From Escherichia coli (GTDB lineage Bacteria > Pseudomonadota > Gammaproteobacteria > Enterobacterales > Enterobacteriaceae), in NCBI RefSeq assembly GCF_013315695.1, contig NZ_CP054353.1: 64,000 nucleotides of DNA. One strand, given 5' to 3'. Position numbers and translations under genes: made by a program. Under the pieces are notes generated by a model that worked only from the letters and a program-made list of their open reading frames with translations, had not been told where the DNA came from and searched no databases. Every line of letters starts with the position of its first letter. Position 1 is the stretch's first letter. Below, one piece after another: positions 1 through 21,704 of the stretch.

Positions 1-103
1 CGGCATTAATGCGCAAATAAGTCGCTATACTTCGGATTTTTGCCATGCTATTTCTTTACATCTCTAAAACAAAACATAACGAAACGCACTGCCGGACAGA
101 CAA

Positions 104-1291
104 ATGAACTTATCCCTACGACGCTCTACCAGCGCCCTTCTTGCCTCGTCGTTGTTATTAACCATCGGACGCGGCGCTACGCTGCCGTTTATGACCATTT
201 ACTTGAGTCGCCAGTACAGCCTGAGTGTCGATCTAATCGGTTATGCGATGACAATTGCGCTCACTATTGGCGTCGTTTTTAGCCTCGGTTTTGGTATCCT
301 GGCGGATAAGTTCGACAAGAAACGCTATATGTTACTGGCAATTACCGCCTTCGCCAGCGGTTTTATTGCCATTCCTTTAGTGAATAACGTGACGCTGGTG
401 GTGCTCTTTTTTGCCCTTATTAACTGCGCCTATTCCGTCTTTGCTACCGTGTTGAAAGCCTGGTTTGCCGACAATCTTTCGTCCACCAGCAAAACGAAAA
501 TCTTCTCAATCAACTACACCATGCTCAACATTGGCTGGACCATCGGTCCGCCGCTAGGCACGCTGTTGGTGATGCAGAGCATCAATCTGCCCTTCTGGCT
601 GGCAGCTATCTGTTCCGCGTTTCCCATGCTTTTCATTCAAATTTGGGTAAAGCGCAGCGAGAAAATCATCGCTACGGAAACAGGCAGTGTCTGGTCGCCG
701 AAAGTTTTATTACAAGATAAAGCACTGTTGTGGTTTACCTGCTCTGGCTTTCTGGCTTCTTTTGTTAGCGGCGCATTTGCTTCATGCATTTCACAATATG
801 TGATGGTGATTGCTGATGGTGATTTTGCCGAAAAGGTGGTCGCGGTTGTTCTTCCGGTGAATGCTGCCATGGTGGTTACGTTGCAATATTCCGTGGGCCG
901 CCGCCTTAACCCGGCTAACATCCGCGCGCTGATGACAGCAGGCACCCTCTGTTTCGTCATCGGGCTGGTCGGTTTTATTTTTTCCGGCAACAGCCTGCTA
1001 ATGTGGGGTATGTCAGCTGCGGTATTTACTGTCGGTGAAATCATTTATGCGCCGGGCGAGTATATGTTGATTGACCATATTGCACCGCCAGGAATGAAAG
1101 CCAGCTATTTTTCCGCTCAGTCTTTAGGCTGGCTTGGTGCGGCGATTAACCCATTAGTGAGTGGCATAGTGCTTACCAGTCTGCCGCCTTTCTCGCTGTT
1201 TATCATCTTAGCGTTGGTGATCGTTGCTGCGTGGGTGCTGATGTTAAAAGGAATTCGTGCAAGACCGTGGGGGCAGCCCGCGCTTTGTTGA
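104..1291 (+). CDS. ydeE: MFS-type transporter YdeE
   Basis: 395-aa ORF with multi-TM hydrophobic profile; sits immediately upstream of mgtS/dgcZ as in E. coli. Confidence 0.85.
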   Translation: MNLSLRRSTSALLASSLLLTIGRGATLPFMTIYLSRQYSLSVDLIGYAMTIALTIGVVFSLGFGILADKFDKKRYMLLAITAFASGFIAIPLVNNVTLVVLFFALINCAYSVFATVLKAWFADNLSSTSKTKIFSINYTMLNIGWTIGPPLGTLLVMQSINLPFWLAAICSAFPMLFIQIWVKRSEKIIATETGSVWSPKVLLQDKALLWFTCSGFLASFVSGAFASCISQYVMVIADGDFAEKVVAVVLPVNAAMVVTLQYSVGRRLNPANIRALMTAGTLCFVIGLVGFIFSGNSLLMWGMSAAVFTVGEIIYAPGEYMLIDHIAPPGMKASYFSAQSLGWLGAAINPLVSGIVLTSLPPFSLFIILALVIVAAWVLMLKGIRARPWGQPALC

Positions 1292-1417
1292 TTTAAGTCG
1301 AACACAATAAAAATTTAATTCAGCCTTCGTTTAGGTTACCTCTGCTAATATCTTTCTCATTGAGATGAAAATTAAGGTAAGCGAGGAAACACACCACACC
1401 ATAAACGGAGGCAAATA

Positions 1418-1513
1418 ATGCTGGGTAATATGAATGTTTTTATGGCCGTACTGGGAATAATTTTATTTTCTGGGTTTCTGGCCGCGTATTTCAGCCACAA
1501 ATGGGATGACTAA
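1418..1513 (+). CDS. mgtS: small inner-membrane regulatory protein MgtS (31 aa)
   Basis: ATG at 1418; reads MLGNMNVFMAVLGIILFSGFLAAYFSHKWDD then TAA; below the 60-aa ORF-track cutoff, found by direct reading. Confidence 0.8.
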   Translation: MLGNMNVFMAVLGIILFSGFLAAYFSHKWDD

Positions 1514-1543
1514 TGAACGGAGATAATCCCTCACCTAACCGGC

Positions 1544-1579
1544 CCCTTGTTACAACTGTGTACAAGGGGCCTGATTTTT
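1544..1579 (+). terminator. putative rho-independent terminator downstream of mgtS
   Basis: inverted repeat ccccttgta / tacaagggg followed by a T-run. Confidence 0.5.
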
Positions 1580-1588
1580 ATGACGGCG

Positions 1589-1686
1589 AAAAAAAACCGC
1601 CAGTAAACCGGCGGTGAATGCTTGCATGGATAGATTTGTGTTTTGCTTTTACGCTAACAGGCATTTTCCTGCACTGATAACGGATC
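1589..1686 (-). ncRNA. mgrR: MgrR small RNA (PhoPQ-regulated); ends approximate
   Basis: minus strand reads GCAGGAAAATGCCTGTTAGCG...CCGCCGGTTTACTGGCGG followed by a U-run (hairpin terminator); matches MgrR as I remember it; convergent with mgtS. Confidence 0.55.
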
Positions 1687-1731
1687 GTTGACACAGTAGC
1701 ATCAGTTTTCTCAATGAATGTTAAACGGAGC

Positions 1732-2622
1732 TTAAACTCGGTGAATCACGTTTTGTTCGTCAATAAACATGCAGCGATTCCTTCCGGTTTGCTTACCCTC
1801 ATACATTGCCCGGTCCGCTCTTCCAATGACCACATCCAGAGGCTCTTCAGGAAATGCGCGACTCACACCTGCTGTCACGGTAATGTTGATATGCCCTTCA
1901 GAATGTGTGATGGCATGGTTATCGACTAACTGGCAAATTCTGATACCTGCACGACATGCTTCTTCATCATTAGCCGCTTTGACAATAATGATAAATTCTT
2001 CGCCACCGTAGCGATAAACCGTTTCGTAATCGCGCGTCCAACTGGCTAAGTAAGTTGCCAGGGTGCGTAATACTACATCGCCGATTAAATGCCCGTAGGT
2101 ATCATTAACCAATTTAAATCGGTCAATATCCAACAACATTAAATAAAGATTCAGAGGATCAGCATTGCGTAACTGATGATCGAAGGATTCATCAAGAACC
2201 CGACGACCCGGCAATCCCGTCAGAACATCCATATTGCTACGGATCGTCAGCAAATAAATTTTGTAATCGGTTAATGCCGCAGTAAAAGAAAGCAACCCTT
2301 CCTGAAAAGCGTCGAAATGCGCGTCCTGCCAGTGATTTTCAACAATAGCCAGCATTAATTCCCGACCACAGTTATGCATATGTTGATGGGCAGAATCCAT
2401 TAGCCGAACGTAAGGTAATTCATCGTTATCGAGTGGCCCCAGATGATCAATCCACCGACCAAACTGGCACAGTCCATAAGAATGGTTATCCGTTATTTCT
2501 GGCTTACTGGCATCTCTCGCGACCACGCTGTGAAACATACTTACCAGCCACTGGTAGTGGGCATCGATAGCCTTATTGAGATTTAACAAGATGGCATCAA
2601 TTTCCGTTGTCTTCTTGATCAT
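1732..2622 (-). CDS. dgcZ: zinc-sensing diguanylate cyclase DgcZ (YdeH), GGDEF domain
   Basis: RYGGEEF motif in the C-terminal half; 296 aa when started at MIKKTTEIDAILLN; synteny. Confidence 0.9.
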   Translation of the reverse strand: MIKKTTEIDAILLNLNKAIDAHYQWLVSMFHSVVARDASKPEITDNHSYGLCQFGRWIDHLGPLDNDELPYVRLMDSAHQHMHNCGRELMLAIVENHWQDAHFDAFQEGLLSFTAALTDYKIYLLTIRSNMDVLTGLPGRRVLDESFDHQLRNADPLNLYLMLLDIDRFKLVNDTYGHLIGDVVLRTLATYLASWTRDYETVYRYGGEEFIIIVKAANDEEACRAGIRICQLVDNHAITHSEGHINITVTAGVSRAFPEEPLDVVIGRADRAMYEGKQTGRNRCMFIDEQNVIHRV

Positions 2623-2876
2623 TGCCACTCCTTTTTCACAGTTCCTTGTGCGCGCTATTCTAACGGGAGAAAAGCAAAATTACGTCAATATTTTCATAGA
2701 AATCCGAAGTTATGAGCCATCTCTGAGATAACATTGTGATTTAAAACAAAATCAGCAGATAAAAAAGTGTTTAATTCTATAAATTAACTCTGCATTATCG
2801 CAATTAAAAGGATGACAAATAGCATAACCCAATACCCTAATGGCCCAGTAGTTCAGGCCATCAGGCTAATTTATTT

Positions 2877-3269
2877 TTATTTCTGCAAATGAGTGACCCG
2901 AACGACGGCCGGCGCGCTTTTCTTATCCAGACTGCCGCTAATGTTGATCATCTGGTCCGGCTGAACTTCTCGTCCATCAAAGACGGCCGCAGGAATAACA
3001 ACATTAATTTCACCGCTCTTATCGCGAAAAACGTAACGGTCCTCTCCTTTGTGAGAAATCAAATTACCGCGTAGTGAAACCGAAGCGCCATCGTGCATGG
3101 TTTTTGCGAAATCAACGGTCATTTTTTTTGCATCGTCGGTTCCGCGATAGCCATCTTCTATTGCATGAGGCGGCGGTGGCGCTGCATCCTGTTTTAAACC
3201 GCCCGGGTCATCTGCCAACGCATAAGGCATGACAAGAAAACTTGCTAATACAATGGCCTGAAATTTCAT
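2877..3269 (-). CDS. ydeI: periplasmic OB-fold (YgiW/BOF family) protein YdeI
   Basis: 130-aa ORF with N-terminal signal peptide ([19 protein letters not shown]); synteny. Confidence 0.8.
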
Positions 3270-3634
3270 ACTGACTCCTTAATTGCGTTTGGTTTGACTT
3301 ATTAAGTCTGGTTGCTATTTTTATAATTGCCAAATAAGATTACTGCCAATTGTTATAAGGCATTTAAAATCAGGCAACTAGCTGTCAAATATTCAGAGAA
3401 TTTAACTCACTAAAGTTAAGAAGAAGATTAAAGAGTCTTAAACATATTTCAGAATAATCAGATTTATAAATTTGAAAATTATTATAACGGAAGGGTATAC
3501 AAAAAAAGTAATTTTGCTGGCGACTGCGAAACGGCATTCGCATTAGCGGTGAAGTTTGCCCTCGCCCAGCTGCTGCAATTACTGCTATAACGAGGCTGGT
3601 CTGGCGATAAATCCAGGCCAGCCATTGGTTGTGT

Positions 3635-5680
3635 TTATACGTTCAAGCCACGATGTTGCAGCATCGGCATAATCTGAGGTGCCTTACCGCGCCATTGTCG
3701 ATACAGGCGTTCCAGATCCTCGCTGTTACCTCTGGAAAGGATCGCCTCGCGAAAACGCAGCCCATTTTCACGCGTTAATCCGCCCTGCTCAACAAACCAC
3801 TGATAACCATCATCGGCCAACATTTGCGTCCACAGATAAGCGTAATAACCCGCGGCATATCCGCCACCAAAAATATGGGCGAAATAACTGCTGCGATAGC
3901 GTGGCGGTATAGCAGGAAGATCCATATTTTCCGCCACCAGCGCCCGCAATTCGAAATCATCGACATCCTGCATTGCTTCGTTTTCTTCCAGGCAATGCCA
4001 GCGCATATCGAGAAGTGCGGCGCTAAGCAGTTCGCTCATCTCATACCCTTTATTGAACAGGCTGGCATTACGCATTTTCTGTTGCAGTTCGTCAGGCATT
4101 GCTGCCCCGCTCTGATAATGCCGGGCGTAGCGAGCGAATACCTGCGGATGCGTTGCCCAGTGTTCGTTGATTTGCGACGGAAATTCGACAAAATCACGCG
4201 GCGTGTTGGTGCCGGAAAGCGTGGCATAACGCTGGCGGGCAAAAAGGCCGTGCAGCGTATGACCAAATTCATGGAATAAGGTTATTACATCATCCCAGAG
4301 TAACAACGCAGGCTCCCCAGCAGCGGGTTTCTGATAATTGCAGACGTTATAAATTACCGGGTGCGTTTCATTCAGCGTTGATTGCTCAACAAAATTGCCC
4401 ATCCATGCGCCGCCGCTTTTTGAATCACGGGCGAAGAAATCACCGTAAAATAACGCCAGCCCCACACCATTATGATCAAAAATTTCCCACACACGAACGT
4501 CAGGATGGTAGACAGGAATATCAAAACGTTCGACAAACTTAATACCGAAGAGCTGATTCGCAGTCCAGAATACGCCTTCATTCAACACCGTGTTTAATTC
4601 GAAATAAGGCTTGAGCTGCGCTTCATCGAGATCGAATTTATCACGTCTTACCTGCTCGGCATAAAATGCCCAGTCCCACGGCTGCGCGCTAAACCCGCCC
4701 TGCTGCTTATCGATAACCGCCTGTATGGAGGCTAATTCATCGCTCGCACGTTGACGCGCCGCTGGAACAATTTCCCGCATAAAGTTGAGCGCTGCTTCTG
4801 GCGTTTTTGCCATCTGATCGGCGATTTTCCATGCGGCATAATGAGGAAAACCAAGCAGTTTCGCCTGCTGCGCGCGGATCTCCACCAGACGTTGAATGAT
4901 AGCGCGGGTATCATTGGCATCATTTTTTTCCGCTCGCATCCAGCCCGCAGTAAACAGTTTTTCACGCGTCGCACGATCGCGCATTTCGGCAAGCGCCGGT
5001 TGTTGGGTGGTATTCAGCAGCGGAATCAGCCATTTGTTATCCAGACCTTTCTCGCGAGCCGCCTCTGCCGCCAGCACAATCTCTTGCTCACTCATTCCTG
5101 CCAGCTGCGCGATATCGTTCACAACCAGACCGCCGGATTTATTTGCTGCCAGTAACCGCTGGTTAAACTGGCTGGTCAGGGTCGCAGCTTCTGTATTCAG
5201 TACTTTTAATTTTGCTTTATCAGCTTGCGCAAGTTTGGCTCCGGCAAGGACAAAACGTTGATGAATCACCTCCACCAGGCGGATGGATTCACTATCAAGC
5301 CCCAGGGATTCACGGCGCTGCCAGACAGCATCTACCCGCGCGAATAATTCACCGTTCAGATAGATATCATTAGCCAGTTCCGCCAGTTCAGCGGAAAACT
5401 GTTCATCAAGACGCTGTAATTCATCATTGGTATGCGCCGCAGTCATCGCAAAAAAGACGCTGGTAACGCGGGTAAGTAATTCTCCGCTTTGTTCCAGTGC
5501 CAGAATAGTATTGTTGAAATCAGGCGTTTGCGAGTTAAGCGCGATGGCAGTAATTTCTGCCCGCTTTTGCAGCATTCCCTCATCGAATGCCGGGCGATAG
5601 TGATGATTGGCAATTTGATCAAAATGGGGAGCCAGATACGGCAGTGTGCTTTGCACAAGGAAAGGATTCATTGTTGTCAT
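3635..5680 (-). CDS. dcp: dipeptidyl carboxypeptidase II (M3 family zinc metallopeptidase)
   Basis: HEFGH zinc-binding motif; 681 aa when started at MTTMNPFLVQ; the ORF-track start is 22 codons further upstream. Confidence 0.9.
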   Translation of the reverse strand: MTTMNPFLVQSTLPYLAPHFDQIANHHYRPAFDEGMLQKRAEITAIALNSQTPDFNNTILALEQSGELLTRVTSVFFAMTAAHTNDELQRLDEQFSAELAELANDIYLNGELFARVDAVWQRRESLGLDSESIRLVEVIHQRFVLAGAKLAQADKAKLKVLNTEAATLTSQFNQRLLAANKSGGLVVNDIAQLAGMSEQEIVLAAEAAREKGLDNKWLIPLLNTTQQPALAEMRDRATREKLFTAGWMRAEKNDANDTRAIIQRLVEIRAQQAKLLGFPHYAAWKIADQMAKTPEAALNFMREIVPAARQRASDELASIQAVIDKQQGGFSAQPWDWAFYAEQVRRDKFDLDEAQLKPYFELNTVLNEGVFWTANQLFGIKFVERFDIPVYHPDVRVWEIFDHNGVGLALFYGDFFARDSKSGGAWMGNFVEQSTLNETHPVIYNVCNYQKPAAGEPALLLWDDVITLFHEFGHTLHGLFARQRYATLSGTNTPRDFVEFPSQINEHWATHPQVFARYARHYQSGAAMPDELQQKMRNASLFNKGYEMSELLSAALLDMRWHCLEENEAMQDVDDFELRALVAENMDLPAIPPRYRSSYFAHIFGGGYAAGYYAYLWTQMLADDGYQWFVEQGGLTRENGLRFREAILSRGNSEDLERLYRQWRGKAPQIMPMLQHRGLNV

Positions 5681-5816
5681 TTTCTTCTCCTGAACGCGAG
5701 GTGTTCCATAGCGTAGGCTTACTGATAACGGAGTGCAATCTTGCAAACCAGTATTACCCGCTCTTAAGCATCACGTGCTATGTTATTGACACACAAAAGC
5801 GTTGAGGAACAGTGAG

Positions 5817-6563
5817 ATGATCGTTTTAGTAACTGGAGCAACGGCAGGTTTTGGTGAATGCATTACTCGTCGTTTTATTCAACAAGGGCATAAAGTTATC
5901 GCCACTGGCCGTCGCCAGGAGCGGTTGCAGGAGTTAAAAGATGAACTGGGAGATAATCTGTATATCGCCCAACTGGACGTTCGCAACCGCGCCGCTATTG
6001 AAGAGATGCTGGCATCGCTCCCTGCCGAGTGGAGCAATATTGATATCCTGGTAAACAATGCCGGCCTGGCGTTGGGCATGGAGCCTGCGCATAAAGCCAG
6101 CATTGAAGACTGGGAAACGATGATTGATACCAACAACAAAGGCCTGGTATATATGACGCGCGCCGTCTTACCGGGTATGGTTGAACGTAATCATGGTCAT
6201 ATTATTAACATTGGCTCAACGGCAGGCAGCTGGCCGTATGCCGGTGGTAACGTTTACGGTGCGACGAAAGCGTTTGTTCGTCAGTTTAGCCTGAATCTGC
6301 GTACGGACCTGCATGGTACGGCGGTGCGCGTCACCGACATCGAACCGGGTCTGGTGGGTGGCACCGAGTTTTCCAATGTCCGCTTTAAAGGCGATGACGG
6401 TAAAGCGGAAAAAACCTATCAAAATACCGTTGCATTGACGCCAGAAGATGTCAGCGAAGCCGTCTGGTGGGTGTCAACGCTGCCTGCTCACGTCAATATC
6501 AATACCCTGGAAATGATGCCGGTTACCCAAAGCTATGCCGGACTGAATGTCCACCGTCAGTAA
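5817..6563 (+). CDS. ydfG: NADP-dependent 3-hydroxy acid dehydrogenase (short-chain dehydrogenase/reductase)
   Basis: N-terminal Rossmann motif VLVTGATAGFG; 248 aa from MIVLVTG. Confidence 0.9.
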   Translation: MIVLVTGATAGFGECITRRFIQQGHKVIATGRRQERLQELKDELGDNLYIAQLDVRNRAAIEEMLASLPAEWSNIDILVNNAGLALGMEPAHKASIEDWETMIDTNNKGLVYMTRAVLPGMVERNHGHIINIGSTAGSWPYAGGNVYGATKAFVRQFSLNLRTDLHGTAVRVTDIEPGLVGGTEFSNVRFKGDDGKAEKTYQNTVALTPEDVSEAVWWVSTLPAHVNINTLEMMPVTQSYAGLNVHRQ

Positions 6564-6651
6564 TTTTTATACCCGGCGTAACTGCCGGGTTATTGCTTGT
6601 CACAAAAAAGTGGTAGACTCATGCAGTTAACTCACTCACAAGCAAGAACGA

Positions 6652-7338
6652 ATGACCGTCGAAACGCAACTTAATCCCACACAGCCTGTCAATCAGCAGA
6701 TTTATCGTATTCTTCGTCGCGACATTGTCCATTGCCTGATTGCTCCAGGCACACCGTTGTCGGAAAAAGAAGTTTCTGTTCGTTTCAATGTGTCACGCCA
6801 GCCGGTTCGTGAAGCCTTTATTAAACTGGCGGAAAACGGTCTGATTCAAATTCGTCCGCAGCGTGGCAGCTACGTCAACAAAATTTCCATGGCCCAGGTG
6901 CGCAACGGCAGTTTTATCCGTCAGGCCATTGAGTGCGCGGTGGCGCGTCGGGCGGCGAGCATGATTACCGAAAGCCAGTGCTACCAACTGGAACAAAATC
7001 TTCACCAGCAACGCATTGCCATTGAGCGCAAGCAACTGGATGATTTTTTTGAACTTGATGACAACTTCCATCAACTCCTGACGCAGATTGCCGACTGTCA
7101 ACTGGCGTGGGATACCATTGAGAACCTGAAAGCGACCGTTGATCGCGTGCGCTATATGAGTTTCGACCACGTTTCTCCACCAGAAATGCTGTTACGCCAG
7201 CATCTTGAGATTTTCTCTGCCCTGCAAAAACGTGATGGCGATGCGGTAGAACGTGCAATGACGCAACATTTGCAGGAAATCAGCGAATCCGTGCGCCAGA
7301 TCCGCCAGGAAAACAGCGACTGGTTTAGCGAAGAGTAG
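6652..7338 (+). CDS. ydfH: GntR-family transcriptional regulator
   Basis: 228-aa ORF with N-terminal winged-HTH region and FCD-like C-terminal domain; synteny. Confidence 0.8.
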
Positions 7339-7515
7339 TTCATTTCCTCTCATCCCATCCGGGGTGAGAGTCTATTCGCCCCGCCTTATGGCTCATGCAT
7401 GCATCAAAAAAGATGTGAGCTTGATCAAAAACAAAAAATATTTCACTCGACAGGAGTATTTATATTGCGCCCGTTACGTGGGCTTCGACTGTAAATCAGA
7501 AAGGAGAAAACACCT

Positions 7516-7719
7516 ATGACGACCTACGATCGTAACCGTAACGCAATCACCACTGGCAGCCGTGTTATGGTTAGCGGCACCGGTCACACTGGCAAGATCC
7601 TGTCGATTGATACTGAAGGTCTGACCGCTGAGCAAATCCGCCGCGGAAAAACCGTAGTTGTTGAAGGTTGTGAAGAGAAACTGGCACCTCTGGACCTGAT
7701 TCGTCTCGGCATGAACTAA
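7516..7719 (+). CDS. ydfZ: small protein YdfZ (67 aa)
   Basis: 67-aa [24 protein letters not shown]...; good RBS (aggag) upstream; synteny. Confidence 0.8.
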
Positions 7720-7726
7720 GCGTGTG

Positions 7727-7757
7727 AATGCCGCCGATGGCGGCATTGCTTTTTTTA
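7727..7757. terminator. putative bidirectional rho-independent terminator between ydfZ and ydfI
   Basis: aatgccgcc gat ggcggcatt hairpin flanked by a T-run; ydfZ and ydfI are convergent. Confidence 0.5.
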
Positions 7758-9215
7758 CTTCACGGAATATTTCGCCACGGTCGCTTTCGCACCATGCGCT
7801 AATAAAGACAAGTACGCTTCCGTCACTTTTGCAGTAAACAAGCTATTGTCTGGCAAATCATCACCAAAGATCGCCTTAATCGCCAGCAATGACTGGACGC
7901 GCGCTTTCCCTTCGGCACTACTTTGTACAGCCTTCTGAATAACAGGTAACAGTGGGTCACTGATTTCTATCGGATTTCCCTGTTCATCAACACCACCGAC
8001 ATAACGCATCCAACCTGCGACGCCCAGCGCCAGCAGATCGAACTTGCTGTCATGCGCCAGATGCCAGCGAACAGAATCCAACATCCGCTGTGGCAATTTC
8101 TGGCTGCCATCCATAGCAATCTGCCAGGTTCGATGACGTAGCGCCGGGTTGCTATAGCGTTCAATTAATCGGTTAGCGTAATCTTGCAAATCAACGCCCT
8201 GCACTTTCAACGTCGGCGCTTGTTCCTGCAACATCAAGGCATACGCTGCATGACGATAATGTTCATCTTCCATGCAGTCATTAATGTGCTGATATCCGGC
8301 AAGATAACCCAGATACGCCAGGAATGAATGACTGCCGTTGAGCATGCGCAACTTCATCTCTTCATAAGGCAGCACATCACTAACCAGTTCGGCTCCCGCT
8401 TTTTCCCATTCCGGACGTCCGGCAACAAAGTTATCTTCTATTACCCACTGGCGGAAAGGTTCACAGGCAACGCCAGCAGGATCGCGCACACCGGTAAGTT
8501 GTTCGATTTTCGTCAGCATATCCTCTGTCACTGCGGGCACAATACGGTCCACCATTGTTGATGGGAAAGTCACGTTTTCTTCGATCCATTGTGCCAGTTT
8601 TACATCAACAGCTTGCGCGTAGGAAGTGACAACGTCACGCATAACATGACCGTTTTCTGGCATGTTGTCACATGACATGACGGTAAATGCGGGAAGTCCT
8701 GCCGCTTTACGGCGAGCCAGCGCCTCGACAATCACCCCTGTTGCAGTTTTCGGCTGGTGGGGATTTTGAACGTCGGCAACGACCATCGGGTGATCGAGCA
8801 TTAACTGTCCGGTCGCCGGAGAGTGGAAATACCCTTTTTCGGTGATTGTCAGAGAGACAATCGCGATTTGCGGTTCACACATCGCAGCCAACACGGTTTC
8901 TAAGCCATCAATCTGTACGTGCAAGGCTTTTTTAACGACGCCAACGACGCGAGCCGTCCACGCATCGGCCGACATTTCCGCAACGGTATAAAGATTATCT
9001 TGCTGTTGTAAATCGGCAATTTGCTGTTCGCCGCCGATTAAATTGACCTCATAATATCCCCAGTCACTGAAATGTTTTGTAGCAAGAATATCGGCATACA
9101 CGCCCTGATGCGCACGGTGAAATGCACCAAAGCCTAAATGAACAATTCTTGGGGCCAGGTTATTACGATCATAAACAGGGAGCGTCGCTTTTGCTGATAA
9201 CAAATTATTTCCCAT
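7755..9215 (-). CDS. ydfI: mannitol/fructuronate dehydrogenase-family oxidoreductase
   Basis: 486-aa ORF, long-chain mannitol dehydrogenase family by sequence character; synteny. Confidence 0.8.
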
Positions 9216-9303
9216 AACAATTCCTTAAATATAAATATGGCAAGCTACATGTTTTGTTATATGAATAAAAATCCCCTCTCCGGTAAGAGAAGGGATTGAG
9301 GAT

Positions 9304-10587
9304 TTAAAGACTTCTGGAAGGTTGCGCAGCTCTGACAACACGAAGTTGATCTTCCGCAGCGTCTTCCAGCGCACTTAAATCACGGTCTTTCACTTCTGGC
9401 ATTTTCAGCGCAGAGATTAAACCAATCACTGAATATGCCATGATCATAATGGCGATCGGATACCAGGATTCCGTCATGGTGCAGAAAATACCCGCCAGGA
9501 TAGGACCAAAACCGGAAGCGATAAGACCACCAATTTCTTTAGAAATAGCCATCCGGGTAAAGCGGTTTTTACAGCCGAACATTTCTGCCATGGTAATGTT
9601 TTCCAGAGCAAATAATCCCAGCACCGCACAGTTATGAATCACAATCAGTGCAACCATAATGGTGCTCGGGGCATAGCTTTTATCTACGATGATAGAAAGC
9701 ATTGGCCACGCCAGCACAATCGCAGAGGTATTCATAATAATATACGGGATCCGGCGACCTATTTTATCGGATAACCAACCAAGGAACGGAATGGTCATAA
9801 AGCCGAGAATCGAACTGATCATCAATGCATCTGTTGGAATTGCTTTGTTAAACAATAACGTCTGCACTAAATAGCCTGCAAGGAAAGTCTGAATTAAACC
9901 GGAGTTACCAGCCTGACCAAAACGCAGCCCTGTTGCCAGCCAGAAGGATTTGCTCTGGAACATGCTACCAGCAGGTGCAGGTTTTGCTGTCGGTTGGTTG
10001 CTGTCGTTAACCTTCTCAAAGACCGGGCTTTCTTTCAGATTCATACGCAACCAGATAGCAAAGACCATCACGACAACGCTCGCCAGGAACGGTATACGCC
10101 ATCCCCACGCCAGCAGTTCCTCTTTACTGAGAATGAAGAACATAAAGGCCCAGATTGCCGTTGCGCTTAAGGTTCCGCAGTTAGTTCCCATAGCCACAAA
10201 TGAGGAGATAATTCCGCGCTTACCTTTTGGCGCATATTCCGCCAGCATCGTACCGGCACCGGAAATTTCCGCGCCTGCCCCCAGCCCCTGAATAATACGC
10301 AGCGTCACCAGCAAAATTGGCGCAAACACACCAATTTGTGCATAGGTCGGCAGCACACCAATTAAGGTGGTACAGATCCCCATCATAGTTATGGTAATAA
10401 AGAGCACTTTTTTACGCCCGATTCTGTCGCCCATTTTGCCGAAAATAAATGCTCCGACAATACGCGCCACATAACCTGCACCGTAGGTTCCCATTGCCAG
10501 AATTAACGCCATTGCCGTTGATGATTCAGGAAAAAATATTTCATGAAACACTAACGCTGCGCCGAGCGAATATAACTGGAAATCCAT
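9304..10587 (-). pseudogene. ydfJ: MFS (metabolite:H+ symporter family) transporter YdfJ, 3' portion; 5' end displaced by prophage integration
   Basis: 427-aa ORF begins inside the conserved E-[FW]-[YF]-D-F N-terminal motif region; the missing 39 codons lie at the other prophage junction (55642..55761). Confidence 0.75.
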
Positions 10588-11372
10588 AATTCACAGGTGT
10601 TTTTTCCCATCCTGTGGTTTCCTTGGCGTTTTCTAGGTTTTTTCAGATAGTTGCATTTTTTAAAAAGCATCCTAAGTTCGATCTCAGTGTCTATCTGGGG
10701 CCTATTTCTGTCCCATATATGCCCCAAAAAAACTCCTCAACAGATAAGTAGTTTTTTCATGGAGTTACGCGTAAAATCAATAACGGCTGGAAATCATTCA
10801 ATACTCGCACTATCGAAAAATTTACCAGCCAACCGCAGCACGTTCTTGCATAAGGCGTGTCTGCGGTTTTTCAACTATTCAGATACATCACTCCCATCAC
10901 ATTCATTCCTCCGCATCAAAGGCATATAGGCTATATCACCTTGATATTTTTCTTCTTCAGATAAAAACTGTTATCTATGTATACTTTTAAACCCAATCCG
11001 TGTAGAGTCTCTGCATAAGATAGTTTGCAGTTGCCACTTCAGCTTGCGCCATAAACCGCCTGATTTTTGCCGCCATCTGTTAGCATTCCTGTATACCTGA
11101 AACGACAATGTTTATCTACGAACTTTAAGAACACCCAGGATAAAAATTGTCAACTATATCATATATAACACATTACTAATTCGAGGCTATATGAACAGCA
11201 TACTGATAATCACTTCGCTCCTTATCATATTCAGCATTTTTAGTCATGCTCTAATAAAATTAGGGATTGGCATATCCAATAACCCAGACAAAACCGATGT
11301 ATAAGTCAACATATCCTGAATCAGACATACAATATCGCAATGAAAATCAATAATATTTTAAGGAATATATTC

Positions 11373-11606
11373 ATGAAATCAAAAGACACCCTAAAGTGGT
11401 TCCCTGCGCAGCTTCCTGAAGTCAGAATTATCCTAGGGGATGCTGTAGTGGAAGTAGCAAAACAGGGAAGACCTATCAATACCAGAACATTGCTTGATTA
11501 CATTGAAGGAAACATAAAGAAAAAATCATGGCTGGATAACAAAGAATTATTACAAACAGCGATATCAGTTCTTAAAGACAACCAAAATTTAAATGGTAAA
11601 ATGTAA
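11373..11606 (+). CDS. ydfK: cold-shock-associated small protein YdfK
   Basis: 77-aa ORF MKSKDTLKWFPAQLPEVRIILGD...; long AT-rich 5' leader; adjacent to pin recombinase as in Qin. Confidence 0.6.
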   Translation: MKSKDTLKWFPAQLPEVRIILGDAVVEVAKQGRPINTRTLLDYIEGNIKKKSWLDNKELLQTAISVLKDNQNLNGKM

Positions 11607-11922
11607 TATAATAAACTTACTTTTTTATCATTTTTCCACTTTAACAACATTTTGCTCCACTTTTCCACGACCAAACAACTTGAAATCTGGTTAAAATAAC
11701 ACGCAACACTATTCTTCTTCCTTGAGTCCGCCCGGAACTCGAAAAACAAACCGAGTTAAAGCCATTTTTCACAAAATCGATTTTGGGTCTCACCAAAATT
11801 ACGGGGTTGCATACGCATTCGTTTATTTTCGAACGTGTACATACAAACATGCACAAAAATAATCAAAATTATTTTCTGAGATGCATTATGATATGAACAC
11901 CAATTTCGTATAGAGTCTCACT

Positions 11923-12513
11923 ATGTCTCGAATTTTTGCTTACTGTCGGATATCAACGCTGGATCAGACCACCGAAAATCAACGCCGGGAAATCGAAAGT
12001 GCAGGTTTTAAAATCAAACCTCAGCAAATAATCGAAGAACACATTAGCGGCTCAGCAGCAACCAGTGAGCGTCCTGGTTTTAACCGGTTGCTTGCTCGCC
12101 TGAAATGTGGTGATCAATTGATTGTGACAAAACTGGATCGCCTTGGTTGTAATGCAATGGATATCAGGAAAACAGTGGAACAACTGACCGAAACAGGTAT
12201 CAGAGTGCATTGCTTAGCATTGGGGGGCATTGACCTGACCAGTCCAACAGGAAAAATGATGATGCAAGTAATTTCAGCAGTCGCTGAATTTGAACGAGAC
12301 CTTTTACTTGAACGCACTCATTCCGGGATAGTAAGAGCCCGGGGCGCAGGGAAACGTTTTGGTCGACCACCTGTGTTAAATGAAGAACAGAAACAGGTGG
12401 TATTCGAACGGATTAAGTCAGGTGTAAGTATAAGTGCCATTGCCCGGGAATTCAAAACCTCGCGGCAAACCATTTTAAGAGCCAAAGCAAAACTTCAGAC
12501 ACCTGACATATAA
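11923..12513 (+). CDS. pinQ: serine recombinase (resolvase/invertase family)
   Basis: 196 aa; N-terminal catalytic domain with Ser in YCRISTLDQ; C-terminal HTH; position next to tail-fibre genes. Confidence 0.8.
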
Positions 12514-12740
12514 AAAATAATCTCGGTGTGAGATGCCTTACGTCTTCCAAGCCCCCTTCCTTGCCGTAAATGGAAAGATACATCTAATTATAGAATTTAT
12601 ATGTTTTACCCTACGGCAGTGCTGGCCATTCAATATCCTGTGCAGTTGACGTATCAACACGGTTCAGCAACACCCGATACTTCTTCCAGGCTTCCCGCAA
12701 CGAGGTTTCTTCCTCCGTTGCATATACAGCTCACCTTTTT

Positions 12741-13034
12741 TCACCCACGATTAACCAACAGCCAGACCAGCAGACACGCCACCACCGGCACAGCAAAATC
12801 CATCAGGCTTGCCACATCCCACGCACGCGGATCAAAACCGCCCCACCACGGCATATTCATACGCTTGCCATGCCCGAACATTTCAATCCAGCGATATTCT
12901 GCCTGGGTATGTTCACGCGCAATGAAGAACGTACAACCAGCTATCGCCCCGTAAGCCCAGTTTCCGGTAAAAAGACCAACCAGTACCTGCGCAGCCACAG
13001 CACAAAGTGCATGAAGGAAAGGTGTTATATCCAT
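12741..13034 (-). CDS. hypothetical small membrane protein (about 3 TM segments)
   Basis: 97-aa ORF with ATG preceded by AAGGAGG; three hydrophobic stretches; last gene of the stf operon. Confidence 0.45.
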   Translation of the reverse strand: MDITPFLHALCAVAAQVLVGLFTGNWAYGAIAGCTFFIAREHTQAEYRWIEMFGHGKRMNMPWWGGFDPRAWDVASLMDFAVPVVACLLVWLLVNRG

Positions 13035-13044
13035 TACGCCTCCT

Positions 13045-13749
13045 TTATCCGATATCGCTTCGGGAAACGGATAACAACTTTAATTCTGACTCAAGTTCAT
13101 CAACTCTTTCAGTCAGCTTCTGGATATGGTGAATCAGTGGAACAACCAGACGTTCGTACATTACACCTTCGGCAACAAGGCCATTGCTGGAAATGGTTTC
13201 CGGTGCATCATCTTCGTTGGCTGGTCGCCAGTGAACAAACTGAGGGGCAATTTCTCCTACTTCCTCGGCAATCAATCCATAGAATCCCCAGTCACGCCTG
13301 TCATTTTCGCATTGCGACCTGTACCACACAGGGCGCATCCTGAAAATGAGATCGGCGTGCTCTGAATCTATCGTCTCTACTGAATGTTTATAGCGGATAG
13401 ACGATGTTGACCGCAGCACAGACGAAATTGCAGGGTCAGGATTAAGATAAAGATTTGCCGCCGCTGTAGTTGTGCCCAATCCCCATAAATAAAACGCTTC
13501 ACGGCCAGTCAGCGGGTAAAAATCTCCGCCATAACGACCACTTTCCAGATCGTTCACTTCCACTTTGTTTTTCAGCTTATTATCAACTTCAGTTTTTGTG
13601 TATCTGGTGCTGATATCCTGCTTTGCACTGGCCATATCAGTCTGAAGCGTTGATACTTTTCCGTTAATAGAGGAAATATCTTCCTTTGCTTTACTAACAT
13701 CTCCCTTCAGCGTGGTGATGTCTCCCGGAATTACTGTTGATGTAGCCAT
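13045..13749 (-). CDS. tail-fibre-like protein: N-terminal coiled coil plus C-terminal intramolecular-chaperone-like domain
   Basis: 234-aa ORF; ATG with GAGG upstream; heptad-like N-terminus; C-terminal segment GFYGLIAEEV...GVMYERLVVPLIHHIQKL...LESELKLL resembles the self-cleaving chaperone domain of endosialidase-type fibres. Confidence 0.5.
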   Translation of the reverse strand: MATSTVIPGDITTLKGDVSKAKEDISSINGKVSTLQTDMASAKQDISTRYTKTEVDNKLKNKVEVNDLESGRYGGDFYPLTGREAFYLWGLGTTTAAANLYLNPDPAISSVLRSTSSIRYKHSVETIDSEHADLIFRMRPVWYRSQCENDRRDWGFYGLIAEEVGEIAPQFVHWRPANEDDAPETISSNGLVAEGVMYERLVVPLIHHIQKLTERVDELESELKLLSVSRSDIG

Positions 13750-13758
13750 TTCTCTACC

Positions 13759-14040
13759 TCACATCCAGCCACGAAGTTGATGCTCAACAGCAACCGCGTA
13801 TTCATCGAATAATGACGATATTTGCGTATCCTTAATAATGCGCACGTTTACAAAATATCCATCTTCCTTAACACATACCGGTTCGCCATCTTCAGTCAGC
13901 TCTCCGGTTTCTTTGTACACGTTACCTATCACATCAATCAGAATATCATCCTGCATCGACTCGTCATTATAATAGCCAATACTTCCCATAAAGGCCGAAA
14001 AGTCGGCCCTGTCGGCAAATTTGAGTGTTAAATCTTTCAT
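13759..14040 (-). CDS. hypothetical protein, possibly a tail-fibre assembly chaperone
   Basis: 93-aa acidic ORF; its ATG overlaps the reconstructed pre-IS1 stop of stf. Confidence 0.35.
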   Translation of the reverse strand: MKDLTLKFADRADFSAFMGSIGYYNDESMQDDILIDVIGNVYKETGELTEDGEPVCVKEDGYFVNVRIIKDTQISSLFDEYAVAVEHQLRGWM

Positions 14041-14246
14041 TAGATTGACTCCCCCATCTGAGCATCAGTCAATGCCTTGTGCCAAATACGCAGATTTCGA
14101 ACGTGTCCAAATAGGTGACGGTTGCCGGATGATGATTGACCACCAATATTAATGAAGCCTCCTGTATATTTGTGTTTTTTATAAGGAGAAAGGTGATGCT
14201 GCCAACTTACTGATTTAGTGTATGATGGTGTTTTTGAGGTGCTCCA

Positions 14247-14522
14247 GTGGCTTCTGTTTCTATCAGCTGTCCCTCCTGTTCAGCTACTGACGGGGTGGTG
14301 CGTAACGGCAAAAGCACCGCCGGACATCAGCGCTATCTCTGCTCTCACTGCCGTAAAACATGGCAACTGCAGTTCACTTACACCGCTTCTCAACCCGGTA
14401 CGCACCAGAAAATCATTGATATGGCCATGAATGGCGTTGGATGCCGGGCAACAGCCCGCATTATGGGCGTTGGCCTCAACACGATTTTACGTCACTTAAA
14501 AAACTCAGGCCGCAGTCGGTAA
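14247..14522 (+). CDS. insA: IS1 InsA
   Basis: 91-aa [26 protein letters not shown]... (zinc-finger InsA). Confidence 0.9.
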
Positions 14523-14944
14523 CCTCGCGCATACAGCCGGGCAGTGACGTCATCGTCTGCGCGGAAATGGACGAACAGTGGGGCTATGTCGGGGCTAAAT
14601 CGCGCCAGCGCTGGCTGTTTTACGCGTATGACAGGCTCCGGAAGACGGTTGTTGCGCACGTATTCGGTGAACGCACTATGGCGACGCTGGGGCGTCTTAT
14701 GAGCCTGCTGTCACCCTTTGACGTGGTGATATGGATGACGGATGGCTGGCCGCTGTATGAATCCCGCCTGAAGGGAAAGCTGCACGTAATCAGCAAGCGA
14801 TATACGCAGCGAATTGAGCGGCATAACCTGAATCTGAGGCAGCACCTGGCACGGCTGGGACGGAAGTCGCTGTCGTTCTCAAAATCGGTGGAGCTGCATG
14901 ACAAAGTCATCGGGCATTATCTGAACATAAAACACTATCAATAA
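14441..14944 (+). CDS. insB: IS1 InsB
   Basis: 167-aa ORF overlapping insA in the -1 frame, typical IS1 arrangement. Confidence 0.9.
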
Positions 14945-14954
14945 GTTGGAGTCA

Positions 14955-17228
14955 TTACCAAGGAGAAACTACCTTAGCACCAATATTACCGTTAACCACA
15001 ACACACAATTCTCGACTTTCTGTGAATCTAAAGCCGATAATGCTTTTTCTCTCTGGTCGTTCTATAACGCTTTTATATTCTATTTTAGTGCCTTTACCAT
15101 TTGTAATGATTGCGCGTGCTCCCAAAGATGTATACCCCAAATACATATAACTTTCATCTGCAATTTCAGTTGTATCTCCCGTAGTGGAAATATTAAGAAT
15201 ACGTGCGCTACCTTCTTTGTTTGGCGATTCATCCCAATTGGTATTAACTTCTGCTAATGAACTAATAGCGGGATTGCACCAATTTAGAGAAATGGGGACC
15301 GTTACAATATCGCTGGCGCGTGTTACAGGGGATGCGCCTGTTATAATAAACGATGAAGCGCATGCCCCACCTTCAACTTGAGGGGTCGCAATATAAATAT
15401 AATCATCCGCGCCAGTGCCCACTCCTTTTGCCGGGGCATACTGAACCATTCCACCTATCATATTTTCTGTATCAAGTGCCTTAATTGTCGCCTCAAAAAA
15501 GATCCATTTGCTTGCTTCATCTTTAACAGCCCTTGCAGTAATGCGATTAGCGGCACCACCCGTCTTATCAATAGATAAATCTGTCGTATTTAAGTAAGCG
15601 TCACCTAAGAATGTGTAGGTAGAACCATCATAGTTTTCAAATCGTAATCGGCATCTTAAATTTGGAGTGCCACTTTGCACCCTGCATGATATGGTTACAT
15701 ACTTTTCTCCGCCTGTTACATCAAAACCTTTACTGCCGGAAACGGTTACTATGTTAATCGCTGAAATTTGCCCTACCATTTCTGGTTTTAATGTAAATTT
15801 TGCGTACTGGAATCCGAAATCATCTACACCTGATGCACTTAAGATCATATTTGACGACTTGTTCCATTTAGTCGGATTTGTTGAATTGATTAGCAGGTTA
15901 GTTCTTTGCCCCTCAATAAGCAGGCCATCACGTTCAAATCGTGGCTCGTCAATGGCAGCCTCTGTCAGCACACCAGATTTATTAATGTAAGTTGCTTTCG
16001 ATGCGCGTTTAAACTTTACAATCTTGTCGCCAGGCATTGTTATTTCATCGTCGCCAATAACAATTTTTTTATATGATGGCGAAAAGCCCGTAATCATATC
16101 CAGTGAATCATTAAACGGTATCCACACATCGGGCAACGGCTGCAAAACTTGTTTATACGGCTCCGCTGCCTGGCTTGCATACTCTCTGGCTGCGTCTTCA
16201 CTTGCTTTAGCTGCTGTCTGGCTTGCTGCCGATGCTTGCGCCGAGTTCGCCGCCGCAGTCTCGCTCGCCTTTGCGTTGGTTTCACTGGTTTTTGCTGCTT
16301 TTTGACTGTTAGCTGATGCAGTGGCAGAAGCAGCCGCCGCGCTTGCAGAACTGGCTGCGGCACTCTCGCTTTGGGCCGCTGCATCCTGACTGCTTTTCGC
16401 CGCAGTTTCACTGGCTTTGGCATTCGTTTCGCTGGTCTTCGCTGCCGTCTGGCTGGACTTTGCGTTAGTTTCACTCGTCTTCGCAGCTTTCTGGCTGTTA
16501 GCCGCAGCAGTTGCTGATCCAGCTGCTGAAGTCGCAGAACCGGCTGCCGCGCTCTCGCTTTGGGCTGCTGCAACCTGGCTGTTTTTTGCCGCAGTTTCAC
16601 TGGCTTTGGCATTCGTTTCGCTGGTTTTCGCTGCCGTCTGGCTGGACTTTGCGTTGGTTTCGCTCGTCTTTGCGGCTGTCTCGCTATTTTTCGCGTTGGT
16701 TTCTGATTTTTTGGCTGCTGTCGCGGAGTTTGCCGATGCAGTCTTTGAGGTCGCTGCCGCCTGTGCACTATTAGCTGCATTCGTTTCTGAGGTTTTCGCC
16801 GCGTTCTTCGATGATGCCGCTGCAGTTTCGGATTTCTTTGCCGCCGCTGCGCTCTGAGAGGCGGCTTCAGCGTTGCGTGCCGCTTCTTCCACCATTTCCT
16901 CAAAACGACGCAATGCCTCCGGCATGACATCATCTTCCGTCATGGCACCGAGAAAATCATTCAGCGTACCTGGTCTGGAACCTTCATAGACGGTAATGGT
17001 TCCGGCATGTGAAGGCGGAAAACCTTCAACCAGCAGGGTGACGCTGTACTGGCCATACTCAACATCCATGCTGTAACGCCCGGCTTCATCCGGATTTTCA
17101 GAGGCCACTGTGTTGACCAGTACCGTGGTGCTGTTACGCTTTGCCTTCAGTTGAATAGTGCAGTTCTGTATTGGTTTTCCCGCACCATCTTTCAGCACAC
17201 CTGAGATTTTTACTGCTGCCATATCCAC
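14955..17228 (-). CDS. stf: side tail fibre protein Stf, C-terminus replaced by IS1 read-through
   Basis: N-terminus MAAVKISGVLKDGAGKPIQNCTIQLKA... matches lambda Stf as remembered; Ala/Ser/Thr-rich repeat shaft; stop codon lies inside the IS1 end. Confidence 0.8.
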   Translation of the reverse strand: MDMAAVKISGVLKDGAGKPIQNCTIQLKAKRNSTTVLVNTVASENPDEAGRYSMDVEYGQYSVTLLVEGFPPSHAGTITVYEGSRPGTLNDFLGAMTEDDVMPEALRRFEEMVEEAARNAEAASQSAAAAKKSETAAASSKNAAKTSETNAANSAQAAATSKTASANSATAAKKSETNAKNSETAAKTSETNAKSSQTAAKTSETNAKASETAAKNSQVAAAQSESAAAGSATSAAGSATAAANSQKAAKTSETNAKSSQTAAKTSETNAKASETAAKSSQDAAAQSESAAASSASAAAASATASANSQKAAKTSETNAKASETAAANSAQASAASQTAAKASEDAAREYASQAAEPYKQVLQPLPDVWIPFNDSLDMITGFSPSYKKIVIGDDEITMPGDKIVKFKRASKATYINKSGVLTEAAIDEPRFERDGLLIEGQRTNLLINSTNPTKWNKSSNMILSASGVDDFGFQYAKFTLKPEMVGQISAINIVTVSGSKGFDVTGGEKYVTISCRVQSGTPNLRCRLRFENYDGSTYTFLGDAYLNTTDLSIDKTGGAANRITARAVKDEASKWIFFEATIKALDTENMIGGMVQYAPAKGVGTGADDYIYIATPQVEGGACASSFIITGASPVTRASDIVTVPISLNWCNPAISSLAEVNTNWDESPNKEGSARILNISTTGDTTEIADESYMYLGYTSLGARAIITNGKGTKIEYKSVIERPERKSIIGFRFTESRELCVVVNGNIGAKVVSPW

Positions 17229-17230
17229 TC

Positions 17231-17262
17231 CACAAAAAAGCCCGCCTGAACCGGCGGGCTGT
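17231..17262 (-). terminator. putative rho-independent terminator downstream of lom
   Basis: minus strand agcccgcc ggttca ggcgggct followed by TTTTTT. Confidence 0.5.
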
Positions 17263-17286: not shown

Positions 17287-17886
17287 TCAGAATTTATAAC
17301 CGACACCAACGATGAAACCGTCAGTGCGCCAGTCGCCACTGCCGGAACCTTCATAAGCAATATCAATGGCCACGGATTCGGTCGGGTTAAACTGCACGCC
17401 AGCCCCCCATGCCAGAGACGTGTCGCTGTGGCGACCGTCATCACTTCCGGTCAGCACATCGTGCGTTTTCCCCTTGTTGTCAGTTACGCGGATATAATCT
17501 CCGGAGAAAGTCGAAACACGGCTGTAAGCCATACCCGCCATCGCATACGCGCTGAACCATTCATTCACGCGCACAGACGGCCCCACCATCACGCTGAACC
17601 AGCGGTTACGCACGGAATCTTCATGCCAGCGGGTATCGCTGTAACGGGTAAGCTGGCGATTCTTGTCTCCTGCATAGCTGAATGACGTCACCATCCCCAG
17701 TGTGTCCGTAAACTCATAACGGTATTTCACGTTAATCCCGTTCAGATCATCGCTGCCGGGAACGTTCGTCGAGGCATGAAGATACCCCGCGCTCAGCGTG
17801 GACTGATGTTCAGATGCCCATGCAGGCGCACCGGATACGGCCAGACAAATGGCTGCGGAAAAAATGGCGGCACAAACTTTACGCAT
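17287..17886 (-). CDS. lom: outer-membrane protein Lom (Ail/Lom family)
   Basis: 199 aa; signal peptide [24 protein letters not shown]; C-terminal VGVGYKF beta-barrel end. Confidence 0.9.

Positions 17887-18801: not shown

Positions 18802-21704
<2,903 letters not shown>

Follow-up and report, generated by a model that had tools for sequence, protein, structure and literature searches.

The window analysed here is a 64,000 nucleotide (nt) stretch of an Escherichia coli chromosome (NZ_CP054353.1). It contains a lambdoid prophage of the Qin type whose side tail fibre gene, stf, is interrupted by the insertion sequence (IS) IS1. We argue that this allele arose by a single transposition of IS1A into the stf of an already defective prophage. 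We hold this with high confidence, and the event was most likely a neutral, strain-private step of decay. The host prophage is a Qin-like one inserted at ydfJ, in a strain closely related to the isolates AF3 and MSB1_4I. One IS1A copy entered codon 755/756 of the 801-codon stf and duplicated the target AAGGAGAAA. One Trp now replaces the last 47 residues of Stf. Those residues are predicted to fold into the final two beta-strands and the terminal helix of the fibre tip, and their loss should prevent that domain from folding. The insertion also abolished the stop/start overlap with a gene of 93 amino acids (aa) and would be polar on three downstream genes. The genes for the tape measure and tip assembly, as well as most of J, had been lost earlier to an IS3/IS30 scar in a shared ancestor.

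The IS1 copy and its empty site

The element is complete and of the IS1A type. Many E. coli genomes have copies annotated as 'IS1-like element IS1A family transposase' that match it at 100% identity over all 768 nt. Its ends, GGTGATGCTGCCAACTTACTGAT and the reverse complement of GGTAATGACTCCAACTTATTGAT, are imperfect terminal inverted repeats of about 23 bp, and both were read. The A6C frameshift motif of IS1 was read from the sequence at 14498-14504. The insB' frame of IS1 is expressed as an InsAB' fusion through -1 frameshifting. A 99.87%-identical IS1 in NZ_OZ001728 is annotated with a 'programmed frameshift' transposase. Length, ends, insA and insB' frames, A6C motif, 9-bp duplication and AT-rich target (36-43% G+C here) are all as in the IS1A of Escherichia coli and Shigella. 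There is no difference in the element, only in its insertion site. A scan of the 64 kb for IS1 ends gave a single match, so the window holds one IS1 only.

The perfect 9-bp repeat AAGGAGAAA directly adjoins IS1 at both ends. There are 5 occurrences of this 9-mer in the 64 kb window, and the probability that it recurs by chance at one fixed position is about 4e-6. The first-pass annotation, a reading of the letters by a model, had placed an IS1 with a 9-bp target duplication at 14183-14968, and it was right. It had also suggested a comparison with IS1-free alleles. The 1000-nt junction left by in-silico deletion of 14192-14968 was searched against 5426 complete E. coli genomes. The uninterrupted junction is present in at least 59 of them with one copy of AAGGAGAAA each, and nine match at 100% identity. 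Nothing contradicts the insertion itself.

These results bear on two other ways to explain the junction. IS1 promotes adjacent deletions and inversions, and there are other IS scars in this prophage. The flanks might therefore not have been contiguous originally, and a deletion, an inversion or a recombination of two IS1 copies could have brought them together. However, an identical 9-bp duplication on both sides is what simple transposition leaves behind, and it would not survive a rearrangement. The joined flanks also reproduce the sequence of the relatives exactly over 1000 nt, as well as a full-length member of the protein family. The empty-site comparison excludes an IS1-mediated rearrangement, and we give it practically no chance.

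The second is an assembly or chance artefact: the contig would contain a collapsed or misplaced IS copy, and stf would be intact in the real strain. The junction is seen in no other searched genome or metagenome, so the allele does rest on one sequence. Yet a misassembly would not make a perfect 9-bp duplication of a sequence that is single in the empty-site alleles. Both flanks are colinear with the relatives to the base, and the IS1 is complete, both ends included. At the homologous loci of other strains IS1 has also inserted independently, with 9-bp duplications. We consider an artefact extremely improbable.

The allele appears to be private to its source strain, judging from the sequence collections searched. 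A megablast of 13700-15500 found this IS1 insertion in 0 of the 5426 complete genomes. An exact scan with 40 nt of the left junction gave 0 matches in genome_contigs (species-representative genomes) and 0 in metagenome_contigs, and an exact-sequence look-up of the truncated 755-aa Stf returned no record. Partial megablast matches (H49 to H51) were considered as the same insertion and rejected, since they are different IS1 insertions nearby. Separate IS1 insertions with their own 9-bp duplications lie in the homologous fibre modules of NZ_CP103633 (locus L003, 5540-6307) and NZ_OZ001728 (locus L002, 4001-4768). One of the two is in the middle of stf (TAACAACCT; strain 2900), and the other is just past the module, downstream of stf (CGATTAACT; strain FFFEB2). 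IS1A and this tail fibre family are both well known, the family being annotated in hundreds of genomes and phages. Only the insertion site is new.

The restored reading frame

The present stf ends in G-A-K-V-V-S-P-W-stop. Its last codon is a hybrid Trp codon made from the T of the duplication and the GG of IS1, and the TAA that follows sits in the right end of IS1. The open reading frame (ORF) thus enters IS1 by 5 nt. The first-pass annotation had it ending 3 codons into IS1 with about 36 codons lost. The actual extension is that one hybrid codon plus the stop, and the actual loss is 47 codons.

In-silico excision gives a frame of 803 codons from the GTG start or 801 from the ATG start, ending in VVSPYKKHKYTGGFINIGGQSSSGNRHLFGHVRNLRIWHKALTDAQMGESI and the stop. 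The peptide quoted for this C-terminus in the earlier reading had two misread residues (ININGG should be INIGG, and WHRALT should be WHKALT). That excision restores the frame is borne out by two comparisons. Of the 801 residues of the restored Stf, 4 differ from WP_000741767.1, the intact protein in the AF3 annotation, and all 4 are in the repeat shaft. Residues 4-803 match the profile of phrog_1419 ('tail protein') from end to end (1-793 of 793).

As had been claimed, the stf stop in the restored sequence overlaps the start of the 93-aa gene: in TAATG, the last A of TAA is also the first letter of ATG. The stop and start also overlap in IS1-free relatives and in the phage KurtStettler. The annotated overlap is 1 nt in NZ_OZ001728 (L002), L004 and AF3 (L006), and 4 nt in NZ_CP103633 (L003) and KurtStettler.

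The consequence for annotation is that stf should be described here as a pseudogene disrupted by IS1. The segment 14040-14183 is its orphaned 3' end and not intergenic sequence. Beyond correct annotation the insertion has little importance.

Two observations on relatives of this gene should be mentioned. A 189-nt tandem repeat (2.3 copies, 83% matches) lies at 16251-16685 in the Ala/Ser/Thr-rich shaft of stf. The stf of MSB1_4I has one repeat unit (63 aa) fewer, which makes it 738 aa against 801 aa. In FDAARGOS_1259 (NZ_CP069559, locus L001, 6349-8751) the IS1-free stf holds an intact ORF of 800 aa. RefSeq labels it a pseudogene 'missing C-terminus' (6751-8751), while AF3 and MSB1_4I have near-identical genes with an intact annotation. 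The annotations seem to be inconsistent here, probably because of the unusual tip domains.

The fibre tip and what was lost from it

The N-terminal part of Stf is of the lambda type. PF08400 (prophage tail fibre N-terminal domain) matches residues 5-134 with an E-value of 7.4e-67 and 223.9 bits (cut-off 26.6). The protein is 61% identical to lambda orf-401 as far as about residue 280 (304-residue alignment, E 1e-73). A long Ala/Ser/Thr-rich repeat shaft comes next. No similarity links the C-terminal 448 residues to lambda orf-314, which makes up the C-terminal half of lambda Stf (best E 4.4). The first-pass statement that the tip is different from that of lambda Stf therefore holds. Residues 437-638 match the NCBIfam model NF048003 'phage head spike fiber domain' (61.2 bits, cut-off 36). 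They also match the head spike fibre Rcc01080 of the Rhodobacter gene transfer agent (GTA; PDB 6TB9) with an E-value of 4.9e-5.

The end of the protein had been read as a LamG/concanavalin-like domain from a motif, with a domain search of the restored C-terminus as the proposed check. That search finds PF13385 (Laminin_G_3) in the last 171-178 residues with an E-value of 3e-4 and 21.4-21.6 bits, where the gathering score is 27.6. The alignment lies at positions 92-149 of the 151 in the profile, exactly the part to which the orphaned tail belongs. When 1.84 billion representatives were searched exhaustively with HMMER, 55 relatives of the tip domain emerged. The query was aligned with 28 of these (alignment A2, 29 members). 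PF13385 is found at E<=0.01 in 24 of the 29, the best E-value being 1.1e-24. The best PDB match of the A2 profile is the Limulus SAP-like pentraxin 3FLP (E 1.5e-3), and weaker matches are to sialidase lectin domains.

The predicted structure agrees with this. AlphaFold2 (AF2) with A2 gave a model with a mean predicted local distance difference test score (pLDDT) of 85.4 and a predicted template modelling score (pTM) of 0.85. This run took the last 171 aa alone and the more divergent homologues of the exhaustive search. An earlier run on the C-terminal 448 aa with 31 close homologues was confident for the head-spike-like part. Its last domain had a mean pLDDT of 60 that fell below 50 at the end, and it was not used for fold assignment. 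Foldseek found 150 matches to the tip model in the PDB at E<=0.001. Among the matches listed, the top 50 of the 150, all are concanavalin-like folds with a probability of 1.00. They include pentraxins (3FLP), perlecan LG3 (3SH4, TMq 0.67), PAPP-A LamG modules, botulinum toxin Hcn, CBM40, neurexin and agrin LG domains and sialidase lectin domains.

Profile, transitive homology and predicted fold together support the assignment of the Stf tip to the LamG/concanavalin-like domains. Its predicted fold is that of the Laminin_G_3 / concanavalin A-like superfamily (PF13385, with pentraxins, CBM40 and laminin LG), with TM up to 0.67. The superfamily and the Stf tip have in common the C-terminal hallmark strand R-x-[LF]-R-[IV]-W-x-x-A-L-[TS]. 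The orphaned tail carries it as V-R-N-L-R-I-W-H-K-A-L-T. We presume that this tip binds glycans.

The cut made by IS1 falls after residue 124 of this 171-residue domain, and residues 125-171 are lost. On the model (DSSP) the lost segment holds the beta-strands 134-137 and 150-158 and the terminal helix 164-167, and pLDDT is 84-95 over most of it. It is the best-conserved part of the tip domain among close homologues. Two of the three invariant columns of A2 (G138, W158) and four of the seven near-invariant ones (G150, N154, L162, Q166) are in it. A jelly roll that lacks its last two strands is expected not to fold, so the fibre tip would be inactivated. We infer that the LamG-like domain of the truncated Stf would be in this state.

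An already defective prophage

The chromosomal order in the window is ydeE-dgcZ-dcp-ydfG-rspR-ydfI-ydfJ' and then the prophage. The prophage order is ydfK, pinQ, the fibre module, lom, the J remnant, head genes, nohA, lysis genes, relBE, hokD and dicABC. The flank at 1-12000 is 100% identical to AF3 (NZ_OZ547117) and MSB1_4I. AF3 is the nearest relative and is colinear with the window over 1-48779, the only structural differences being the IS1 in the window and an IS110 element in AF3. Between 8199 and 52616, MSB1_4I lacks the IS1 and one 189-nt repeat unit in stf and is otherwise structurally the same as the window.

At about 18802-21238 a scar made up of a remnant of the IS3 family, an entire IS30 (transposase at 19772-20923) and a further transposase fragment stands in place of the tail genes between T/G and the last 280 or so codons of J. 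The replaced genes include the tape measure H as well as M, L, K and I. The same scar is in AF3 and MSB1_4I, and the window shows the matching ORF layout. Since the relatives have it in common, the scar predates the IS1 insertion. With these tail genes missing the prophage was unable to build tails before IS1 came. The insertion was therefore most likely a recent step of decay, private to this strain and neutral to selection. This makes a clean and datable case of the stepwise decay of a cryptic Qin-like prophage. IS3 and IS30 came first, then IS1 here and IS110 in a sister strain.

One could instead argue that the insertion was selected. The truncated fibre or the silenced downstream genes would help the host, or IS1 would drive its neighbours. 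A possible gain is the removal of a surface-exposed or toxic product of the cryptic prophage. Genes of the Qin and Rac cryptic prophages can affect host physiology, and homologous stf modules have been hit independently by IS1 in at least two other strains, 2900 and FFFEB2. However, IS1 is very abundant (a median of 11 places per genome) and the target is AT-rich, so repeated hits are expected without selection. Also, none of the 5426 genomes has the allele, while the intact junction is in at least 59. In a consensus scan, IS1 showed no outward promoter-like site facing the 93-aa gene. A strong terminator-like hairpin after lom precedes the stf operon, which is probably silent in the lysogen; a lambdoid stf operon depends on late antitermination. 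Selection for the insertion has no support here, and we think it very unlikely.

Some points do weigh against neutral decay with loss of fibre function as we describe it. The Pfam score of the query is below the gathering threshold, so the LamG assignment depends on the homologues and the predicted structure. A truncated fibre might still assemble by means of its N-terminal and shaft regions. The polarity of IS1 is argued from general knowledge of IS1, and neutrality from the missing tail genes. Some genes of defective prophages are still expressed and used by the host. Even so, we maintain that a single IS1A transposition into a tail-less prophage is the best account of this allele.

Table 1. 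Positions in the window of the IS1 copy, the stf segments and the neighbouring genes.
Feature	Position	Strand	Remarks
Truncated side tail fibre gene stf	14955-17222	-	755 aa from ATG at 17222; 757 aa from GTG at 17228
Orphaned stf 3' end	14040-14183 (144 nt)	-	47 codons + TAA; in-silico excision
GTA-head-spike-fibre-like Stf domain	15315-15920	-	residues 437-638 (GTG numbering); NF048003
Retained N-terminal 124 residues of putative LamG/concanavalin-like domain	14961-15332	-	AF2 model of restored 171-aa domain
IS1, complete, IS1A type	14192-14959 (768 bp)	+	antisense to stf; 100% identity, both terminal inverted repeats
Target-site duplication, left copy AAGGAGAAA	14183-14191	.	direct reading
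Target-site duplication, right copy AAGGAGAAA	14960-14968	.	direct reading
insA	14247-14522	+	91 aa; ORF list
insB' reading frame	14441-14944	+	ORF list
93-aa gene	13759-14040	-	phrog_1361, E 3e-44; ATG overlaps intact stf stop
234-aa tail-fibre-domain protein	13045-13749	-	C-terminal Peptidase_S74 intramolecular chaperone, PF13884
97-aa protein, last gene of module	12741-13034	-	phrog_1443, E 3.5e-59; hypothetical in relatives
Lom gene	17287-17886		stf is downstream of lom
J remnant, last ~280 codons	17954-18805		ORF list; annotated likewise in relatives

The downstream genes and the fibre module

The start of the 93-aa gene is now 914 nt past the new stf stop, so any translational coupling of the two would be lost. 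The antisense IS1 and the target duplication (777 bp) now stand between stf and the three downstream genes. IS1 is probably polar on all three. The 234-aa product has the S74 chaperone domain at 27.2 bits against a cut-off of 22. It corresponds to only the C-terminal end (1147-1384 of 1385) of the long-fibre family phrog_3299, and it has a short conserved N-terminus that recurs in the third gene of KurtStettler, which at 510 aa is far longer. The 234-aa protein may represent a second fibre reduced to a minimum, or what remains of a longer protein after deletion of the centre. The hairpin between lom and the stf start is at 17239-17260 on the - strand and has 8 pairs (7 G-C) with a T run behind them. 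To be expressed, stf would depend on read-through or antitermination at this position.

The same module is found in infectious phages. Phage records that cover at least 80% of the C-terminal 448 aa of Stf number 198, and Drexlerviridae, Seuratvirus and T5-like phages are among them. A close comparison is with the lateral-fibre modules of small siphoviruses and T5-like phages, for example the Seuratvirus KurtStettler (bas22_0022-0024) and the Drexlerviridae EC125, swan01 and tuinn. Their C-terminal 448 aa are 65-73% identical to Stf. The order of genes is the same: a fibre, a gene of about 93 aa whose start overlaps the fibre stop, and a second fibre or chaperone protein. In KurtStettler these are annotated as a lateral tail fibre, a 92-aa protein and a 'putative lateral tail fiber chaperone'. 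The 92-aa protein is 40% identical to the product of the 93-aa gene (E 6e-24). The N-termini of the third KurtStettler gene and of the 234-aa protein are 45% identical. The phage modules are intact in infectious virions, while the module in the window is interrupted and belongs to a tail-less cryptic prophage. The BASEL paper proposes that the lateral fibres of these phages bind O-antigen glycans (PMC8594841).

Comparison with the lambda system (orf-401/orf-314) gives both likenesses and differences. The window stf is in the same place after J and lom and has the same PF08400 domain and an Ala/Ser/Thr-rich repeat shaft. Its tip is unlike orf-314, being a GTA-head-spike-like domain and then a LamG/concanavalin-like one. 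Where lambda has Tfa after Stf, the window has the 93-aa gene and the S74-chaperone fibre protein, and only a remnant of tfa further on. A tip of the lambda/T4 gp37 type followed by a Tfa chaperone is thus not what is found in the window. The stf of laboratory lambda PaPa is frameshifted. Like it, the window stf is a naturally inactivated allele, with IS1 here in place of the frameshift there. The sequence match of the middle domain (437-638) to Rcc01080 of the Rhodobacter capsulatus GTA also comes with differences. The Stf domain is in a tail fibre and not on a capsid, and an additional LamG-like domain follows it.

A literature search on this lateral-fibre type (head-spike-like plus concanavalin-like tip) found no paper. 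We tentatively suggest, as a possibility that we favour less than not, that the stf, 93-aa and S74-fibre genes are an uncharacterised and widely exchanged lateral-fibre cassette. The LamG-like tip would bind a glycan, and the small gene would encode an assembly factor that depends on the coupling. The suggestion spans lambdoid prophages, Drexlerviridae, Seuratvirus and T5-like phages, and it concerns the fibre family rather than the insertion. If it is true, the IS1 allele offers a knock-out of tip and coupling that nature has already made. Apart from this suggestion there is a modest use for reading phage host range, in that this common class of lateral fibres ends in a head-spike-like and then a LamG-like domain and is encoded in a conserved three-gene module.

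Other observations on the prophage

The pinQ gene (11923-12513) encodes a serine invertase of 196 aa (Resolvase + HTH_7) and adjoins a tail-fibre-assembly fragment at 12611-12721. An invertible segment served by pinQ, which would make the IS1 a break in a shufflon-like switch, was considered and rejected, since there is no crossover core of the AAACCNNGGTTT type near the locus and no convincing inverted repeats. It looks like pinQ is an orphan invertase that was left after the invertible segment was lost.

The additional IS110-family element of AF3 is about 1.37 kb long (L006 29669-31039). It lies inside the IS3 remnant, at a site that corresponds to about 19111-19115 of the window. The sister lineages each gained a different IS after they diverged.

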